Origin: Candidatus Multivorans sp.
GTDB lineage: Bacteria; Acidobacteriota; Thermoanaerobaculia; Multivoradales; Multivoraceae
Length of the DNA: 64,000 nt
Direction: 5' to 3'
Assembly: GCA_965247095.1 (NCBI GenBank)
Contig: OZ251997.1
Coordinates: 1,504,001-1,568,000, forward strand
In this document: piece after piece, positions 6,467 through 50,060 of the stretch
How positions within the stretch are numbered: position 1 is the first letter of the stretch
Layout: each line of letters begins with the position of its first letter
Position numbers and translations under genes: made by a program
Notes under the pieces: model-generated
Seen by the model: only the letters and a program-made list of their open reading frames with translations
Told to the model about the DNA's origin: nothing
Databases searched by the model: none

Positions 6467-8210
6467 CTCGGCACACTCCCTGCGCGGGCGCAGTTCCATC
6501 CGGCGCGAGCAGGCGCACGATCCGGTTCACTTCGACCGTCCTTCGCTTGCTGACCTTTCCGTTCGGCCAGCGCACCACCAGTTGATCGACCAGCGCCGCG
6601 TCGCCGATCCCGAAGTGAACCCGCGGATCGTTGGCGACCGCGAAGCTGTAGCCGGGCCGCACGTGCCGGGACCAACTGCGGCCGCCCGTCTCCACGGTCA
6701 CGCGAGCGCCGATCGCCGAGCGATCGAAGACACCGCCGCCGCAGAGGTCGACGACCAGCCACGAACGGCTGCTCCCCACCTCGTTGCGCAAGAGCCGGGC
6801 GGGCCCCCCGTTGTTAACCACCACGATGTCGAGATCGCCGTCGTTGTCGAGGTCGCCGAACGCCGCGCTGCGGCTTACCTCAAGGAGTTCCAGCGCGGCC
6901 CCGGCCCGATCCGACACGTCCTCGTACCGGCCGGAAGGCGTGCCCGCCAGCAACTGGTTCGGCTCGCGGTAGTCGAAGGCGGCGGTGTCGCCCGGCGTCA
7001 CCTTGCCGTTGGCGATGAAGAGGTCGAGCACGCCGTCCCCGTCGTAATCGAACCAGGACGTGCCGAAGCCGGTGTACGCCTGACTGACGCCGCCGAGCTG
7101 CTTTTCGTCCGTCACGTCCTGGAAGAAGCCGGCGCCGTCGTTGCGATAGAAGGTGTTCGTCTCGCCGCCCAGGTGGGTCAGGAACAGGTCGAGGTCGCCA
7201 TCGCCGTCGGGATCGGCCACGGCGATGCCCATGCCGGCCTCGGGCTGGCCGAGTTCATTGAGCGCCGCTCCGCGCGCCAGCGCATCCTCCCGGAACGTGC
7301 CGTCGCCCCGGTTGAGCCACAGGTGGTTCACCGCCTGGTCGTTCGCCACGTAGAGGTCGACGAGGCCGTCATCATCGAAGTCGGCGGCAACGACGCCGAG
7401 TCCCGGCCCGGTCACCGAACGGATGCCGGCGGCATCGCTCACGTCGGTGAACCGTCCGTTGCCGTCGTTCCGGTAGAGCGTGTCCGGCGCCGGCGGATAC
7501 TCGGCCGGATTGCAGTAGTTCCGCAGGCCGTTCGGCCCCAGGCAGGGCCGCTCCCGGTCGGCGCTCCAGACGACGTAGTTGACGACGAACAGGTCCAGGT
7601 CGAGATCACCGTCGTAGTCGAAGAAGACGGCGCTCGACGACCAGGAGGCGCCGCCGACGCCGGCGAGTTCCGTCACGTCCTCGAAGGCGCCGCCGCCGAG
7701 GTTGCGGTACAGACGGTTCGCGCCGACGTTCGTCACGTAGAGGTCGACCAGGCCGTCCCGATCGTAGTCTGCGGCCGTTGCGCCGGCGCCGTAGCCGGTG
7801 TCACCGACCCCGGCGGCGTCCGTCGTGTCCTCGAACGTGCCGTTGCCCAGGTTGCGGTAGAGGCGATTGCCCGGCGGGCTGCCGGATTTGGGCGAGACGC
7901 CCGCGTTCCCAGGCTGGGAACCCGGTACAGGGCCGCTCTGCACCAGGTAGACATCGAGGAAGCCGTCGTCGTCGTAGTCGAGAAGCGCCCCGCCGCCGAC
8001 GAGAAGCTCGGGGTAGCTGTACTGACCAACCGCGCCGTTCCGGTGGATGAAGGCCAACCCCGCCTCAGCCGCGCGCTCAACGAAGATCGGCGCCGCCGCC
8101 GCGAGTTCTGCCGGCACAGCAGGTTCGCCCACGGAGTCGCCGCCCGGACCGGCGCAGGCCCAGAGGGCCGTCGTCACCGCGACCGGAAGGAGAATCGGAG
8201 CACACCGCAT
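6456..8210 (-). CDS. CRTAC1-family FG-GAP/VCBS repeat protein with ASPIC/UnbV domain
   Basis: Repeated DYDxDGxxDLYV and NRLYRNLG.G.FEDVT motifs; C-terminal AIGARV..GYS..HFGIG..VRWPNG. Start placed at MRCAP (lipobox LWAC). Confidence 0.92.
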   Translation of the reverse strand: MRCAPILLPVAVTTALWACAGPGGDSVGEPAVPAELAAAAPIFVERAAEAGLAFIHRNGAVGQYSYPELLVGGGALLDYDDDGFLDVYLVQSGPVPGSQPGNAGVSPKSGSPPGNRLYRNLGNGTFEDTTDAAGVGDTGYGAGATAADYDRDGLVDLYVTNVGANRLYRNLGGGAFEDVTELAGVGGASWSSSAVFFDYDGDLDLDLFVVNYVVWSADRERPCLGPNGLRNYCNPAEYPPAPDTLYRNDGNGRFTDVSDAAGIRSVTGPGLGVVAADFDDDGLVDLYVANDQAVNHLWLNRGDGTFREDALARGAALNELGQPEAGMGIAVADPDGDGDLDLFLTHLGGETNTFYRNDGAGFFQDVTDEKQLGGVSQAYTGFGTSWFDYDGDGVLDLFIANGKVTPGDTAAFDYREPNQLLAGTPSGRYEDVSDRAGAALELLEVSRSAAFGDLDNDGDLDIVVVNNGGPARLLRNEVGSSRSWLVVDLCGGGVFDRSAIGARVTVETGGRSWSRHVRPGYSFAVANDPRVHFGIGDAALVDQLVVRWPNGKVSKRRTVEVNRIVRLLAPDGTAPAQGVCRDAV

Positions 8211-21078: not shown

Positions 21079-21156
21079 CAGGTGGGCACCGGGGTCGCGG
21101 CAGGGTATCCCGGAGCACGCTAGCGCGGCAGAACGACCGGAGGCCGGCGCTTCGCG

Positions 21157-21188
21157 CCGGATGCGGGCAGGATGCCCGCGTTCCCAGG
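21157..21188 (+). repeat. 32-bp REP-like palindrome, copy 1
   Basis: ccggatgcgggcaggatgcccgcgttcccagg; identical to the copy at 30848. Confidence 0.85.
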
Positions 21189-21283
21189 TCAGATCGTTCT
21201 ACCGCCCAAGCTCCTAGGCCGCGTCAAACCGCTGGTACACTCCGGCGTCCTTCGCGCTGAGACCGGCTGTCTCGCCCGGTTGT

Positions 21284-24278: not shown

Positions 24279-24432
24279 CGTCTCGCCAGCACAACAACAC
24301 CAACCCAGGAAGCGCTGCCATGAAGTCCATCAGGTCCCTCTTCGCGACTGCTGCCTCCCTGCTGCTTGCAGCCTAGGTCGGCGCGCAGGTATCTACGGCA
24401 AGCCGGTGGACCGCGGGTTGCCGGCATCCGGA

Positions 24433-24464
24433 CCTGGGAACGCGGGCGTCTCGCCCGCATCCGG
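24433..24464 (-). repeat. 32-bp REP-like palindrome, copy 2 (reverse orientation)
   Basis: Reverse complement ccggatgcgggcgagacgcccgcgttcccagg; flanks extend the match to the 21144-21190 and 45455-45499 copies. Confidence 0.85.
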
Positions 24465-24508
24465 CGCGATGCGCCGGTAGGGTTCGTTCCACAAACGAGG
24501 AAACTGCA

Positions 24509-30847: not shown

Positions 30848-30879
30848 CCGGATGCGGGCAGGATGCCCGCGTTCCCAGG
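30848..30879 (+). repeat. 32-bp REP-like palindrome, copy 3
   Basis: ccggatgcgggcaggatgcccgcgttcccagg between convergent SRAP and cusA. Confidence 0.85.
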
Positions 30880-42559: not shown

Positions 42560-42588
42560 TTGACAGCCGCCATTTTTCCGGGCATAAC
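42560..42588 (+). promoter_or_regulatory. Sigma70-type promoter for the 58-aa ORF/ATPase unit
   Basis: TTGACA - 17 nt - CATAAC. Confidence 0.6.
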
Positions 42589-42746
42589 TCGGGTTCCTAT
42601 TCAGACCCGCTTCAGGTGTCGCCCGCCCGAGAGGATCAGACGACAAGAAAGTCTGAACTGACTCCTGCAGCCCGCCTAGAAGGCGATGGGACGTGGGAGG
42701 ACACTGTGAAGATCGTACGGACTAGATCGATCGGAGGAGACAGCGA

Positions 42747-42923
42747 ATGGCTAGGGTGCTAGATGAGATTCTTGAGACGTTCTACGCCAAGCTCTCGGAG
42801 TCGGACAGCGTGAACGAGGCAGCAGTACAGGAGTTGCGCACCCTCTTCGCTTCGGAGAAGAAGCTGAAGGCCGACGATTTCGTCGAGGTCCTCAAGAAGG
42901 CAGCGCGGGAGGGGCAGCGGTGA
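42747..42923 (+). CDS. 58-aa hypothetical helical protein (not in the ORF track)
   Basis: GGAGGAG SD; MARVLDEILETFYAKLSESDSVNEAAVQELRTLFASEKKLKADDFVEVLKKAAREGQR*; GTGA overlap with the ATPase start. Confidence 0.82.
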   Translation: MARVLDEILETFYAKLSESDSVNEAAVQELRTLFASEKKLKADDFVEVLKKAAREGQR

Positions 42924-45367
42924 TTCACATCGAATCGGTGGCCATACGTGAACTCAGGGGAATCCGCGAGCTTGAGATCGAGCCCCGCCGGAAGAACTTC
43001 GTCGTATCCGGGCCGAACGGCTCGGGGAAGAGTGGCGTGGTGGATGCCATTCAGTTCGCCTTAACCGGCGAGATGTCACGGCTTGCCGGTAAGGGAACCG
43101 GCGGACTCAGCGTCAGTCGCCACGGTCCCCACGTGGACCGTCGGGATGACCCTGCGTCAGCTGAGGTCTCGCTTCGGTTCTACGCCCCGGACTTCAAGAA
43201 ATCGGCCGTCCTGACCAGGAACGTCAAGAATGCCAAGAACTTCAACCTCGAACCTGACGAGCCCGAGATTAGGGCCCTCATCGAGGAGGTAGCGGATCAT
43301 CCGGAGCTGACGCTCTCGCGACGCGAGGTCATCAAGTACATCATCGTCGAGGCTGGGCAGCGGTCAAGGGAGGTTCAGGCCCTCCTGAAACTGGAGGCCA
43401 TCGGCCAGACCCGTGGTGTCTTGAAGACCGCGTCAAACAAACTCTCCAACGCTGCGGGTCAGGCACGGAGTGCCCTCCAGAGTGCAGACGACGCGCTCCG
43501 CCGCCATCTCGACGTAGAGATACTGGCACCAGAGGATGTCCTCGCAGCGATCAATCCGCACCGGCGGACCCTGGATCTGGGCCCGATCAGGGACCTGGAA
43601 GCGGATACCGATTTCAGGACCGGCATCTTGGAAGCCCTAACCGACACAAGCTTCAACAAAGGCGCCGCGCTCCGGGACGTGGAGGCGCTCAAGCGGGCCC
43701 ACATTGGCCTGCCCGCATTGGCCCACGAGGAAGTGGAATGTGTAGTGCGCGACCTCGCCACTCTGGACGGTGAGCCGGCGCTCCTTCAAGCGATCGCGCG
43801 CCAATCCTTCGTCGAGCGCGGTCTACGACTGATCGACGGAGACCATTGTCCGCTCTGCGATTCCGACTGGGAGAGCGAGGAAGCGTTGAAAGCACACTTG
43901 AGGGAAAAACTCTCCAAGGCGGACGAAGCGGATGCACTCCAGACACGGCTACTCGACAACGGGGCCAAGATCGCCAACCAAGCGCGGCGGATCGCGGGCT
44001 TGGTAGATACCGTGCAGCCTCTGGCGAAGCACTTCGGTCCGGACGGCTTCGGCGAGATGCTCGACAGATGGTCGTCAGACTTAAAGGCCTTTGCCGCGGC
44101 ACTGAGGACCGTCGAGTCGATCGTTGAACAACGCCCTCGGCTCGATCAAAGTTGGAGCCTGACTCCAAGGTCATTCGAGGATCTCTTGGAAGCCCTCAGA
44201 CTCGCGATCCAGGACAAACCCGACCAGAGTGCTTCAGTCGCCGCGCAGACTTTCTTGACGCTTGCCCAAGACCGCTTCTCCACCTGGCAGGACGCGCAGC
44301 GTCAAAAGAAGCGTGCCGAACTCGCGGCAGAGGCCGGGAGGGCCACCTACAACACGTACTGCGAGGTGGCCGATGGGTATCTGAGTGCGCTCTACGAGGC
44401 GGTTGAAGACGGGTTCGGCGCGTACTACCGGCAGATTAACGCGGAGGACGAAGACGGGTTCAGAGCGAAGCTGGAGCCTGCTGAAGGCGGCCTGGATCTG
44501 GAGGTGGCTTTCTACGATAAGGGAATGTACCCGCCGGGGGCCTACCACAGCGAGGGACACCAAGACGGGATGGGAGTCTGCCTCTACCTCGCACTCATGA
44601 AGCGGCTACTCGGCGATCGGTTCCACTTTGCATTACTCGACGACGTAGTGATGTCGGTCGATCGAGGTCACCGAAAAGAACTCTGCCGTCTGCTGAAGGA
44701 ACACTTCCCCGAAACGCAATTCATCATCACGACGCACGACAAAGTCTGGGCGAAGCAGATGCAGACAGAGGGTCTTGTCGAGTCGAGGGGAGGCGTCGCC
44801 TTCCACAGTTGGAGCGTGCAAACCGGGCCGGTCGTGGAACAGGCGGCCGGAGTTTGGGATGACATTGAATCAGATGTTGCCAAGGGTGACACGGGTGTTG
44901 CGGCGAGCCGGTTGCGCCGGCACATGGAGTACGTGGCTGGCGAGCTGGCGGACCAGCTCGGAGCGAGGCCGCCCTTCCGAGGCGACAACGCTTACGATCT
45001 GGGCGACCTCCTACCTGCGGTCATCGGGCGGCACGGAGAGCTACTGAAACTTGCCGCGAAGGCAGCGAACACGTGGAACGATGAGGATGGCAAGGCGAAG
45101 GTCGAGGACCTGAAGGGCAAGAGGGCCGAAGCGCTATCCGCATATGGCGGCGAAGCATGGGTCGTCAACAAGGCCGTCCACTTCAACGAATCGGTGAACT
45201 TCACGGGCGATGAGTTTCGGGAGGTAGTCGATGCCTTCAAGAGCTTGCTTGCGCAGCTGCGGTGTTCGTCATGTGAGTCGTGGTTTTACGTCATGCCTAG
45301 GAAGGGCGATCCTGAGAGCCTACGGTGTCGATGTGGGTCTGTGGTACTGAATCTGAACACGAAGTAA
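42920..45367 (+). CDS. SMC/Rad50/RloC-like ABC ATPase with zinc hook and C-terminal extension
   Basis: Walker A GPNGSGKSG, hook CPLC, signature HSEGH, Walker B/D-loop LLDDVVMSVD, H-loop ITTHD; tail with RLRRHME, NKAVH, CSSC...CRC. Confidence 0.88.
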   Translation: MIHIESVAIRELRGIRELEIEPRRKNFVVSGPNGSGKSGVVDAIQFALTGEMSRLAGKGTGGLSVSRHGPHVDRRDDPASAEVSLRFYAPDFKKSAVLTRNVKNAKNFNLEPDEPEIRALIEEVADHPELTLSRREVIKYIIVEAGQRSREVQALLKLEAIGQTRGVLKTASNKLSNAAGQARSALQSADDALRRHLDVEILAPEDVLAAINPHRRTLDLGPIRDLEADTDFRTGILEALTDTSFNKGAALRDVEALKRAHIGLPALAHEEVECVVRDLATLDGEPALLQAIARQSFVERGLRLIDGDHCPLCDSDWESEEALKAHLREKLSKADEADALQTRLLDNGAKIANQARRIAGLVDTVQPLAKHFGPDGFGEMLDRWSSDLKAFAAALRTVESIVEQRPRLDQSWSLTPRSFEDLLEALRLAIQDKPDQSASVAAQTFLTLAQDRFSTWQDAQRQKKRAELAAEAGRATYNTYCEVADGYLSALYEAVEDGFGAYYRQINAEDEDGFRAKLEPAEGGLDLEVAFYDKGMYPPGAYHSEGHQDGMGVCLYLALMKRLLGDRFHFALLDDVVMSVDRGHRKELCRLLKEHFPETQFIITTHDKVWAKQMQTEGLVESRGGVAFHSWSVQTGPVVEQAAGVWDDIESDVAKGDTGVAASRLRRHMEYVAGELADQLGARPPFRGDNAYDLGDLLPAVIGRHGELLKLAAKAANTWNDEDGKAKVEDLKGKRAEALSAYGGEAWVVNKAVHFNESVNFTGDEFREVVDAFKSLLAQLRCSSCESWFYVMPRKGDPESLRCRCGSVVLNLNTK

Positions 45368-45454
45368 AGAGGCGGGCCTTTCTCTGCCGCAATCGTCACT
45401 CCCTCACTACCAGCGACCGGCCAGAAGGCCGGCCCAATGACTCTCGGACTACGG

Positions 45455-45486
45455 CCGGATGCGGGCGGGACGCCCGCGTTCCCAGG
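45455..45486 (+). repeat. 32-bp REP-like palindrome, copy 4
   Basis: ccggatgcgggcgggacgcccgcgttcccagg. Confidence 0.85.
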
Positions 45487-45524
45487 TCCGGATGCCGGCG
45501 GGGACGCCGACGCACCCAGGCCCG

Positions 45525-47856: not shown

Positions 47857-48576
47857 CCGCCCGCCCCCGTTTCCGATGAAACCAGTTGGCCCTTGTCGAG
47901 ACGCAGCAGGCGCTTCGCGCGCGCCGCCGCGGTCGGGTCGTGGGTCACCATGATGATCGTCTTGTTGAACTGCTGGTTCAGTTGCACGAGCAGGTCGAGC
48001 ACTTCGCGGCCCGAGTCGGCGTCCAGGTCGCCGGTCGGCTCGTCGGCGAGCAGCAGGGTCGGATCGGTGACGATGGCCCGGGCAATCGCCACCCGCTGTT
48101 CCTGGCCGCCCGAGAGCTGCCGCGGATAGTGCTTCATCCGGTTCTGCAGGCCCACCACGGAGAGCGCGGTCTGGACCCTCTTGCGGCGCGCCGCCTTGGA
48201 AGACCGACGCAACGTCAGCGGCAGTTCCACGTTCTCATAGGCGGTCAGCACGGGAATCAGGTTGTAGAACTGGAAGATGAAGCCGATGTTCCGCTGACGC
48301 CACCGCGCCAGCTTGCTCTCGTTCAGACGGTTGACGCGCTCGCCGGCGACGTTCAGCTCGCCGCTGCTCGGCCGGTCGATGCCGGCGAGCAGGTTGAGCA
48401 GCGTGCTCTTGCCTGAGCCTGAAGGCCCCATCAGCGCCACGAAGTCGCCCTGTTCGACGTCCAGGGTGATCCCCTGCAGCACCTTCAACTCGAAGGCGTC
48501 GCCCTCTCTGCCAACGTACGTGACACAGCGGCCATCCCGTTGAATAGTGGAGGGCACACGTTGGCAAGGAGGATCA

Positions 48577-49062
48577 ATGTCAAGACGAGAGCAGAGGTTT
48601 GGCGGCGGCTCGGAGCTCCCGGTCGCGGGTGTTGAGGAGCGTAGCGACGAGGCCCCCGCGGCCGGCGCGGCGCCCGCCGGGGCGGTTCCCGACCCGGAAG
48701 TGCTGGCGAGACCGACCAGGCGGCAGTTCACGGCGGAGTACCGGCTGCGGATTCTGGAGGAAGCGGACCGATGCACCCACCGCGGCGAGGTGGGTCGGCT
48801 GCTGCGGCGAGAGGGTCTGTACAGCTCCCATCTGGCCAACTGGCGCAAGGCGCGGCGCGAGGGCGCGCTTTCCGGTCTGAGGCCGAAGAAGCGGGGCCGC
48901 AAGCCGAACGAGGCCAACCCTCTGATGCCGAAGGTGAAGCGGCTGGAAGCGAAGGTCAAGCGTCTCGAGAGGGAAGTCGCCGCCGCGCACACGATCCTGG
49001 ACGTCCAGGGAAAAGTTGCAGGGCTGCTGGGATTCAGCCTCGAAGACGGGAAGGACTGCTGA
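48577..49062 (+). CDS. IS3 transposase OrfA (HTH)
   Basis: AAGGAGG SD; RRQFTAEYRLRIL..LLRREGLYSSHL..WR; slippery G-GGA-AAA at 49008-49014. Confidence 0.88.
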   Translation: MSRREQRFGGGSELPVAGVEERSDEAPAAGAAPAGAVPDPEVLARPTRRQFTAEYRLRILEEADRCTHRGEVGRLLRREGLYSSHLANWRKARREGALSGLRPKKRGRKPNEANPLMPKVKRLEAKVKRLEREVAAAHTILDVQGKVAGLLGFSLEDGKDC

Positions 49063-50060
49063 TGGCGGCAAGGTCCCTGGCCCGGCAGGTCGGCGTCGCG
49101 CCGGCGTGCCGGGCGCTGGGCGTATCGCGATCGACCTTCTATCGTCGTGCGAGGCCCGCTCCCGGGCGACGGCAGCCCCGCCCCACGCCTGCCCGGGCAC
49201 TGAGCCAGATCGAGCGGAAACGGGTCGAGGCCACGCTTGCGTCGCCGCGTTTCGTCGATCGTTCGCCGGGAGAAGTGGTGGCCACCCTGCTCGACGAGGG
49301 CCGCTACCTGTGCTCGGAGCGCACGATGTACCGCATCCTCGAAGCGAACCACCCCGTGAGGGACCGCCGCAACCAGCGCGTCCATCCGTCGTACGCCAAG
49401 CCGGAGCTGGTCGCTGTCGCGCCCAACCAGGTCTGGTCGTGGGACATCACCAGGCTGCTCGGACCGCAGACCTGGACCTACTACTACCTCTACGTCCTGC
49501 TTGACCTCCTAAGCCGCTACGCGGTCGGCTGGATGGTCGCCGACCGCGAGAACTCCGCGCTCGCCCAAAGGCTCATCGAGGAGACCTGCCTCAAGCACGG
49601 CGTCAAGCCCCATGTCCTGACCCTGCATTCCGATCGAGGCGCCCCCATGACCAGCCAGGGTACCGCCCAACTGCTCGCCCGCCTCGGCGTGAACCGGTCC
49701 CTGGGCCGCCCGCGGGTCAGCGACGACAACCCCTACTCCGAAGCACAGTTCAAGACCCTCAAGTACCACCCCGACTTCCCCAGCCGCTTCCCCAACCAGG
49801 ACGCCGCGACCGACTACTGCAGGTCCTTCTTCCCCTGGTACAACACGGAACACCGCCATGCCGGCATCGCCATGCTGACCCCCGAGACCGTCCACTACGG
49901 CCGGGCGCAAGCCGTGATCGAGCAGCGCCAACGCACGCTGAGCGCCGCCTGGGAAAGCTCCCCCGAACGATTCGTCGGCGGCCAACCGATGCATACGCCA
50001 CTGCCCCAGGCCGTCTGGATCAACAAGCCCGACTACGAGACTGCAGAGACGACTCAGTAA
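49062..50060 (+). CDS. IS3 transposase OrfB (rve/DDE)
   Basis: PNQVWSWDIT, HSDRG, DNPYSEAQFKTLK, WYNTEHRH; TGATG overlap, -1 frame relative to OrfA. Confidence 0.92.
   Translation: MAARSLARQVGVAPACRALGVSRSTFYRRARPAPGRRQPRPTPARALSQIERKRVEATLASPRFVDRSPGEVVATLLDEGRYLCSERTMYRILEANHPVRDRRNQRVHPSYAKPELVAVAPNQVWSWDITRLLGPQTWTYYYLYVLLDLLSRYAVGWMVADRENSALAQRLIEETCLKHGVKPHVLTLHSDRGAPMTSQGTAQLLARLGVNRSLGRPRVSDDNPYSEAQFKTLKYHPDFPSRFPNQDAATDYCRSFFPWYNTEHRHAGIAMLTPETVHYGRAQAVIEQRQRTLSAAWESSPERFVGGQPMHTPLPQAVWINKPDYETAETTQ

Follow-up and report, generated by a model that had tools for sequence, protein, structure and literature searches.

A conserved pair of a 58-residue protein and a zinc-hook ATPase with a putative HEPN-derived tail, a candidate conflict module in Candidatus Multivorans

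In a 64,000-nucleotide stretch of the genome of Candidatus Multivorans sp. (contig OZ251997.1, assembly GCA_965247095.1; hereafter the window), two overlapping, co-directional genes encode a 58-residue protein and an 815-residue zinc-hook ATPase of the ATP-binding cassette (ABC) kind, which ends in an effector-like tail (Table 1). Direct analysis gives the anatomy of the two proteins, the conservation of the pair, the homology of the ATPase to a sister family with a canonical HEPN motif and the mobile contexts of its relatives. The best reading of these results is an abortive-infection or addiction module, an unnamed relative of RloC and Lamassu, whose function we infer. It is rather probable that we are dealing with a mobile conflict module, as opposed to a housekeeping protein. 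We also lean, with less assurance, toward the specific explanation that it is a self-contained, horizontally mobile two-gene abortive-infection module that works like RloC and Lamassu, with an RNase tail and a small protein that gates it.

Relatives of the ATPase were collected from one genome for each of 185,579 species. A relative is encoded in 484 stretches. Because the Walker A peptide served as one of the two search patterns, the family itself may be smaller but not larger than this number. The 80 loci that were kept, one plasmid among them, span Gemmatimonadota, Acidobacteriota, Actinomycetota, Alphaproteobacteria, Planctomycetota, Chloroflexota, Spirochaetota, Cyanobacteria and two phyla of the candidate phyla radiation (CPR). 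A hidden Markov model (HMM) was built from 42 small open reading frames (ORFs) picked by position alone together with that of the window. Of the 79 loci whose sequence extends ahead of the ATPase, 78 match it in the DNA directly before that gene; at the sole non-matching locus (L080), a 70-residue ORF occupies the same place. The stop of the small ORF overlaps the ATPase start by 4 nucleotides in 60 of the 78 matched loci, and the small ORF is exactly 58 residues long in 41 of them. The conservation of the small ORF upstream of homologues, which had been left as a check on the original prediction, is thereby confirmed. Clustering of 3317 flanking ORFs yielded no third conserved gene, the best other cluster being present in 6 of the 80 loci; a third component was therefore rejected, and the two-gene unit appears self-contained, as had been proposed. 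The same arrangement is seen in RefSeq on plasmid pP88_b of Phaeobacter inhibens, where a 58-residue hypothetical protein overlaps an 817-residue "AAA family ATPase", and on a Haloarcula plasmid, which carries a pair of 64 and 812 residues (25% identity) whose small member scores 37.9 bits against the small-protein HMM.

The small protein of the window contains 12 acidic and 10 basic residues. It belongs to no Pfam family, has no sequence similarity to any PADLOC family, and found only clusters of 58-residue hypothetical proteins in the ESM Atlas. A kinship with transcription activator-like effector (TALE) repeats was considered and rejected: a profile search of the PDB gave an E-value of 1e-13, but this sums about 2 bits per repeat over many repeats. 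Residues 25-56 (consensus ...kpkAddLVaifs...) do resemble a single TALE repeat (LTPdQVVAIAS), which may be chance or a common helix-loop-helix habit. At one locus (L076), ATT stands at the aligned ATPase start and the small ORF reads through to 72 residues.

Of 8000 candidates scored against the ATPase, 1253 were homologues at E<=1e-3. Among the 120 that were listed, most are 813-821 residues long and 60-86% identical to it; one has 873 residues, and a few are shorter and probably partial. Their sources label them only as "AAA family ATPase", "hypothetical" or with generic mislabels. In an alignment of 71 sequences, comprising the window protein and 70 of the 73 intact ORFs from the loci (L024 was omitted as shorter, and L044 and L065 as near-copies of L043), the Walker A segment G31-G39 (P32 near-invariant), Q153, the signature-like Y542-HSEGHQD-549 including S544-Q548, the Walker B pair D574-D575 and H606 are invariant, as is the zinc hook C310-P311-x-C313 (CPLC in the window). 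The AlphaFold2 model (mean predicted local distance difference test, pLDDT, 85.3) has a split ABC head and two long antiparallel helical arms, with CPLC at their apex. Foldseek matched it to the heads of Rad50, SMC, condensin and cohesin and to Lamassu LmuB (9hqu, 9uxh), although the match to LmuB 9hqu_A (E 9.7e-11) is no better than those to Rad50 or SMC. Pfam assigns SMC_N to residues 4-616 (66.6 bits), along with AAA_23 and AAA_29, and nothing after residue 620; the PADLOC matches are generic and confined to the head, the best being those of mad3 and LmuB (about 60 bits). None of the systems named in PADLOC v2.0.0, NCBIfam or Pfam covers the two-gene pair, in line with the earlier failure to recognise it as one.

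The tail of the ATPase holds R664-LRRHME-670, V749-NKAVH-754 and two cysteine pairs, C782/C785 and C803/C805. Across the 71 sequences, whose tails are 36-79% identical to that of the window, only 13 tail positions are invariant (W631, G636, P637, R666, E670, W747, N750, H754, the four cysteines and L812). In the AlphaFold2 model, the tail helices are H1 (645-654), H2 (658-680, which contains E670), an insert (694-718), H3 (722-746) and, beyond the loop with N750 and H754 (747-762), H4 (763-778). In the survey of HEPN domains (PMC3710099), these are described as having an acid in helix 2, an insert that separates helices 2 and 3 and a motif, Rx4-6H with a polar residue usual after the arginine, where helix 3 ends and in the following loop; the helix order, the acid in helix 2 and the motif position of the tail all fit this description.

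A weak plasmid match from Hymenobacter (24% identity) led to a sister family of 723-822-residue proteins, of the type found in Hymenobacter, Fibrella and Deinococcus. These have the same head, a CPxC hook, a helical tail with an invariant E650 and the same CxxC...CxC ribbon, which is also present in haloarchaea. In all 25 members of the sister-family alignment, the sequence R729-N-x-V-G-A-H735, followed by F, is invariant. The alignments of the two families matched each other in hhalign with probability 100 and E 2.3e-50 over 733 columns (3-812 against 4-772), which paired V749 with R729 and N750 with N730, while HMMER paired H754 with H735 and E670 with E650. At the position of R666, the sister family has an invariant glycine. 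We read the tail of the window family as a probable HEPN-derived domain because a homologous family carries the canonical motif at the aligned site; judging from these alignments, the motif arginine and one spacer residue would have been lost and R666 gained four residues before the glutamate. The description of this tail in the original prediction, as N-x3-H without the usual arginine, is exactly what the comparison with the RNx4H motif of the sister family reveals. The tail profile, searched against 1.84 billion representative proteins, matched 1148 clusters at E<=1e-3, 407 of them at E<=1e-30. In the best 150 clusters the domain is always C-terminal, in proteins of about 790-850 residues or shorter, probably partial ones, and the tail is therefore tied to this architecture. 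An ESM Atlas search with the tail returned unnamed clusters, one of which (score 0.82) has AAA_13 in 13% of its members and is a lead only.

The one sister locus that we inspected lies on a Hymenobacter monticola plasmid (L082, 3893-9685), where the ATPase is followed by co-directional genes for a 642-residue protein without a family and a 477-residue protein of the metallo-beta-lactamase fold; this gene set may constitute a larger system. There, an unannotated 81-residue ORF overlaps the ATPase start, and at 2.6 bits it has no similarity to the 58-residue family. The sister family thus differs from that of the window in keeping RNxVGAH and lacking R666 and, at this locus, in lacking a recognisable 58-residue homologue and having two further downstream genes.

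A physical association between the two proteins of the window is supported by complex prediction, one of the checks that the original prediction had named. Each chain was supplied with our own alignment, that of the small protein having 74 rows (L040 and L048 were left out for unclear starts, L044 and L065 as near-copies and L076 for its read-through). The pair scored 0.63, against 0.09 for the best of three controls; this mark is reached by 58 of 80 solved complexes and by 2 of 110 mismatched pairs, a calibration that is approximate here since the alignments were our own. At least 93% of contacts are shared between the runs, and the partner pLDDT is at least 78. The predicted interface comprises ATPase residues 156-175 and 465-491, which form the two helices at the coiled-coil base, and the tightest predicted contacts join the near-invariant F12 of the small protein to ATPase residues 479-484.

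The surroundings of the relatives point to mobility. An ATPase homologue is carried by 32 plasmid records. In a survey of flanks, 199 ORFs were picked from 29 diverse loci, and the scan covered 131 of them in 19 loci. Within about 4 kb, 12 of the 19 loci have a gene for a transposase, integrase, serine recombinase, relaxase or Rep protein, and a PADLOC defence family occurs in the flanks at E<=1e-15 in 7 of them, both being raw counts without a matched background. A group II intron reverse transcriptase and a relaxase, which also matched PADLOC models, were excluded from the defence count. The families found are AbiEi, PglX/methyltransferase, a PDC-S37/Hhe-like helicase-nuclease, a PDC-S35 TIR protein, a type IIG restriction-modification enzyme, a type II methyltransferase with PDC-S45, and PDC-M02B with a capP-like protein. 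The clustering in defence islands that had been suggested as a check finds support among the relatives and not in the window itself, whose copy lies among housekeeping genes. Near-identical ATPase copies (L035, L036, L037 and L078; branch lengths 0.002-0.02) occur in Tessaracoccus, Kocuria and Gulosibacter, of three actinobacterial families, and in a metagenome-assembled genome labelled Bacteroidota, which suggests recent transfer or mis-binning. The CPR copies L066 and L067 (Saccharimonadales and Doudnabacteria) nest inside the Actinomycetota clade of the ATPase tree.

Several known systems resemble the pair in part. One of them is RloC, a single polypeptide of about 800 residues. Its ABC head is interrupted by a coiled coil that bears a CxxC hook, and an RNase of the HEPN class forms the C-terminus. 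In head and hook, the ATPase of the window is built alike: the Walker A, signature, Walker B/D-loop and switch histidine marked in Figure 1 of the RloC paper (PMC2610378) are all present, as is the coiled-coil insert with a CXXC hook, a trait of RloC only, in the form of C310-P-L-C313 at the apex of the two arms. In RloC and PrrC, according to the same paper, mutagenesis showed a catalytic triad Arg-X3-Glu-X36-52-His, to which the R-x3-E...H of the window is similar, with a spacer of 83 instead of 36-52 residues. RloC, too, is seldom linked to a fixed partner system. However, the ATPase falls below the cut-off of Pfam AAA_13 (PF13166; 22.7 against 36 bits, in residues 288-406 of the hook region only), the PADLOC PrrC model touches only its Walker B region (14 bits), and it has an extra Cys4 zinc ribbon. 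It also has an obligate, translationally coupled 58-residue partner; no such partner came up in a text search of the RloC paper (PMC2610378).

Lamassu ("ABC-3C"; LmuB with LmuC and LmuA) resembles the pair in another way. LmuB is the closest PADLOC model for the head (PDLC03859, 60.2 bits, residues 2-612) and for the hook and coiled coil (21 bits, in the hook segment). Its hook ATPase is accompanied by a small accessory protein, LmuC, and the effector is held in check, as stated in a preprint (bioRxiv 10.1101/2025.03.14.643221); the ATPase of the window likewise has a small companion. In contrast to Lamassu, no separate LmuA effector gene accompanies the ATPase, an effector-like domain being fused instead, and the predicted site of the small protein is the coiled-coil base, whereas LmuC lies near the hook. 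The unit is filed under neither name, because the AAA_13/RloC profile test fails and a separate LmuA gene is missing. Rad50-Mre11 and SbcC-SbcD share the layout of head, coiled coil and zinc hook, and the predicted grip of the small protein lies where the Rad50-binding domain of Mre11 sits, a site also mentioned in the Lamassu preprint (bioRxiv 10.1101/2025.03.14.643221). Unlike them, the unit of the window has a far shorter coiled coil (arms of about 150-190 residues), no Mre11/SbcD nuclease partner and a mobile, patchy distribution. We found no name for the two-gene family in the literature searched; the main published classification of ABC ATPases and the supplementary lists of the HEPN survey, which lay outside that search, may already include the clade. 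Within the literature searched, "ABC-HEPN" or "RloC-like" is used only by PMC3710099.

How such a module could work may be outlined from these likenesses. The ATPase would, by homology, dimerise through its hook and by ATP-driven engagement of its heads. It would sense DNA, probably ends or abnormal replication products, by analogy with RloC, whose ATPase is DNA-dependent (PMC3458546), and with LmuB, which binds DNA ends (bioRxiv 10.1101/2025.03.14.643221). The tail would be a metal-independent RNase with H754 as the catalytic histidine and N750 retained, in which R666 of the R-x3-E segment may stand in for the lost arginine of Rx4-6H, as in the RloC/PrrC triad. Since HEPN RNases need two domains side by side, we propose that head engagement joins the two tails into an active RNase, whose cleavage of RNA, possibly tRNA, would halt translation and arrest the infected cell. 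The 58-residue protein would clamp the coiled coil at its base, across both helices, and gate activation, either as a safety catch or as a co-sensor. That the module senses DNA, cleaves RNA, is activated in this way and protects against phages is what we infer, and any antitoxin action of the small protein likewise.

A number of observations weigh against this explanation, beginning with the tail. The canonical HEPN arginine is absent in all 71 family members, the 83-residue spacer between the invariant R666-x3-E670 and the invariant H754 is well outside the RloC range given above, and the N750/H754 loop has a pLDDT below 50 in the full model. Nor did the HEPN-like tail of the original prediction pass direct tests. 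Its profile matched nothing in Pfam, PADLOC or the sequences of the PDB, HEPN included, the nearest PDB hit being cytochrome b562 at E 0.45. Searched individually against PADLOC and Pfam, the 71 tails gave chance-level matches only, among them IBR zinc-finger noise in 21 (best E 0.0043) and Csx1/Csm6 in 2 (E 0.058). Foldseek of the tail model (pLDDT 81.9) against the PDB returned no match at E<=1e-3 (best 0.58), with generic helical bundles and no HEPN structure among its hits. The tail of the Hymenobacter sister protein found only CyaY in the PDB, at a chance-level E of 0.08.

The foremost alternative is that the tail is no nuclease at all. It would instead be a degenerate HEPN-derived domain, or a helical and zinc-ribbon module of other origin, with a role in nucleic-acid binding or in control of the heads. 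The system would then act on DNA, for example by clamping or marking foreign DNA or by calling in a nuclease of the host, and would be a sensor of the Wadjet or Lamassu kind that has no built-in effector. The missing arginine and the failure to find a HEPN profile or fold speak for it, and zinc ribbons are common nucleic-acid-binding elements. HEPN domains that lack the motif can be non-catalytic binders, yet families that lack the arginine and keep other conserved basic residues may remain active, both as stated in PMC3710099. Against a tail without catalysis, N750, H754, R666 and E670 are among the few invariant tail positions of an otherwise divergent domain, a pattern typical of a catalytic site, and no partner nuclease gene is conserved nearby. 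We regard this alternative as unlikely, though it is the strongest of those considered.

Other points against an abortive-infection module with an RNase tail concern its activation, its partner and its history. The Walker B segment (residues 572-581, LLDDVVMSVD) has an aspartate where Rad50 and SMC proteins have the catalytic glutamate, the sister family also having LDDV, and the ATPase may therefore be slow or mainly a switch. The Rad50-binding domain of Mre11 sits on the coiled-coil base of Rad50; because the small protein is predicted at this very site, the result of the complex prediction may partly reflect likeness to solved Rad50-Mre11 structures. The copy of the window is flanked by housekeeping-type genes (sulfatases and an ABC exporter), outside any defence island, the flank counts lack a background, and none of 50,697 phage records carries a homologue. 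Finally, a FastTree tree mostly follows phyla, with 12 label changes against a minimum of 9 and a shuffled mean of 37.9, so that much of the spread of the family lies within phyla.

The absence from phage records would also suit a toxin-antitoxin-like addiction module that stabilises plasmids and genomic islands and has no dedicated anti-phage role, the ATPase-nuclease being the toxin and the 58-residue protein a labile antitoxin. A small upstream gene translationally coupled to a large putative toxin, the predicted binding of the small protein, the 32 plasmids and the transposases or integrases adjoining 12 of the 19 loci are all compatible with this. On the other hand, the small protein matches no antitoxin family, DNA-binding ones included, and it is predicted on the coiled-coil base, away from the putative active site. 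As the sensor of a simple toxin-antitoxin pair, a hook ATPase would be elaborate, and defence genes adjoin 7 of the 19 loci. We consider a pure addiction module somewhat less plausible still than the non-nuclease tail; toxin-antitoxin action and abortive infection are not mutually exclusive.

A vertically inherited protein of DNA repair or chromosome maintenance, of the Rad50/SbcC/RecN kind, is improbable: despite the SMC_N and AAA_23 matches, the Foldseek hits to Rad50 and SMC, the phylum-following tree and the electronic label of the RefSeq copies as GO:0006302 "double-strand break repair", all NCBIfam repair models score far under their cut-offs (RecF 41.6 against 172, sbcC 21.9 against 478.5, rad50 16.2 against 453.75), no SbcD/Mre11 or kleisin partner is conserved, relatives occur in at most 484 of the 185,579 species genomes, the flanks are variable, there are plasmid copies and an atypical composition, and early stops cut the ATPase ORF in 5 of 79 loci (L026, L041, L061, L064 and L068), which are pseudogenes or assembly errors.

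The unit as described in the original prediction, with its ORFs, GTGA junction, promoter letters, leader, Shine-Dalgarno sequence, ABC motifs, hook and tail motifs, is present in the sequence as stated, and its coordinates are collected in Table 1. The TGA of the small ORF and the GTG start of the ATPase overlap as GTGA (4 nucleotides). GGAGGAG lies 7 nucleotides ahead of the ATG of the small ORF, and GGGAGGGG is the ribosome-binding site ahead of the ATPase GTG. TTGACA-17-CATAAC is a plausible promoter, judged from its letters; a consensus promoter scan left it uncalled because the rule demands T last in the -10 hexamer, which here ends in C. A riboswitch or structured leader was rejected, as the leader has no Rfam match at E<=1 and folds no more stably than expected (z -0.43 against shuffles). 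No conservation of the leader DNA was found across the 80 related loci.

Table 1. Features of the two-gene unit and its flanks, in positions of the 64,000-nucleotide window.
Feature	Position	Strand	Details
Promoter-like TTGACA-17-CATAAC	42561..42589	+	Letters only; TTGACA 42561-42566, 17-nucleotide spacer, CATAAC 42584-42589
Leader with Shine-Dalgarno GGAGGAG	42590..42746	+	About 155 nucleotides; GGAGGAG at 42733-42739
Small subunit gene, 58 residues, predicted binder of the ATPase coiled-coil base	42747..42923	+	HMM, coupling, complex prediction
Zinc-hook ABC ATPase with C-terminal effector-like tail, 815 residues	42920..45367	+	Pfam, homologues, AlphaFold2, Foldseek
N-terminal half of ABC head	42920..43390	+	Residues 1-157; Walker A 31-39, Q153; invariant columns, model secondary structure
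Outgoing coiled-coil arm	43394..43831	+	Residues 159-304; model helices 159-197, 204-217, 247-304
Zinc hook CPLC (C310-C313)	43847..43858	+	Invariance; apex between arms; weak Pfam AAA_13 and PADLOC LmuB matches centre here
Returning coiled-coil arm	43877..44437	+	Residues 320-506; model helices 320-372, 377-394, 438-506
C-terminal half of ABC head	44438..44839	+	Residues 507-640; signature-like 542-549, Walker B 572-575, H606
Helical HEPN-like domain (putative)	44852..45253	+	Residues 645-778; R666-x3-E670 at 44915-44929, N750-x3-H754 at 45167-45181
C-terminal Cys4 zinc ribbon	45260..45352	+	C782, C785, C803, C805, all invariant; three short model strands
REP-like repeated intergenic element	45454..45499		Downstream; marks the end of the two-gene unit

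The codon usage of the unit is less GC-biased than that of its neighbours, as had been noticed: the GC content at third codon positions (GC3) is 0.73 in the ATPase and 0.80 in the small ORF, against 0.84-0.92 in six neighbouring genes, and the flanks have an overall GC content of 0.65-0.70 and the unit one of about 0.60-0.62. No convincing flanking direct or inverted repeats mark an insertion of the unit. The downstream element that had been called a repetitive extragenic palindromic (REP) sequence recurs four more times in the window, at 24420-24465 (minus strand), 21156-21190, 30848-30879 and 7881-7913, and it therefore behaves like a REP-type intergenic repeat of the host; it is GC-rich and 33-46 nucleotides long, with at least five copies of 91-98% identity in the 64 kb. 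The neighbouring genes encode an alpha/beta hydrolase, a lipocalin-like protein, two sulfatases and two FtsX/MacB permeases together with the ABC ATPase that belongs to these; none of the neighbours is an SbcD, ScpAB or Jet gene, as the original prediction had observed. About 3 kb downstream of the unit lies an IS3-family insertion sequence (48547-50060), whose GC3 of 0.77 is also below that of its neighbours. It consists of OrfA with HTH_Tnp_1 (48547-49062) and an overlapping OrfB with an rve integrase core (48771-50060), which are probably joined by a frameshift.

Beyond the abortive-infection module that we favour, a bolder and distinctly more tentative proposal, which we think doubtful as a whole, would place the pair in an unnamed ABC-HEPN immune family of bacteria and haloarchaea, with strong tail matches in at least 407 clusters at 50% identity. 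In such a family, two fused HEPN-derived tails would come together as a composite RNase site when ATP drives the engagement of the Rad50-like heads, and the 58-residue protein, as a mimic of the Rad50-binding domain of Mre11, would be a safety catch on the neck. The catalytic arginine would have moved to the R-x3-E helix as in RloC/PrrC, and the sister family would record the transition.

In summary, if the pair does protect against phages or plasmids, it would be a widespread two-gene system that is unnamed by the annotation tools used here. Its range includes soil and marine phyla (Gemmatimonadota, Acidobacteriota, Actinomycetota, Alphaproteobacteria, Planctomycetota and CPR) and haloarchaea, where, to our knowledge, few defence systems have been tested. 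The pair would then be a compact model both for how an SMC/Rad50-like sensor switches on a fused effector and for the role of a minimal clamp at the base of a coiled coil, and comparison of the window family with its canonical-motif sister family could reveal how HEPN active sites are rebuilt.

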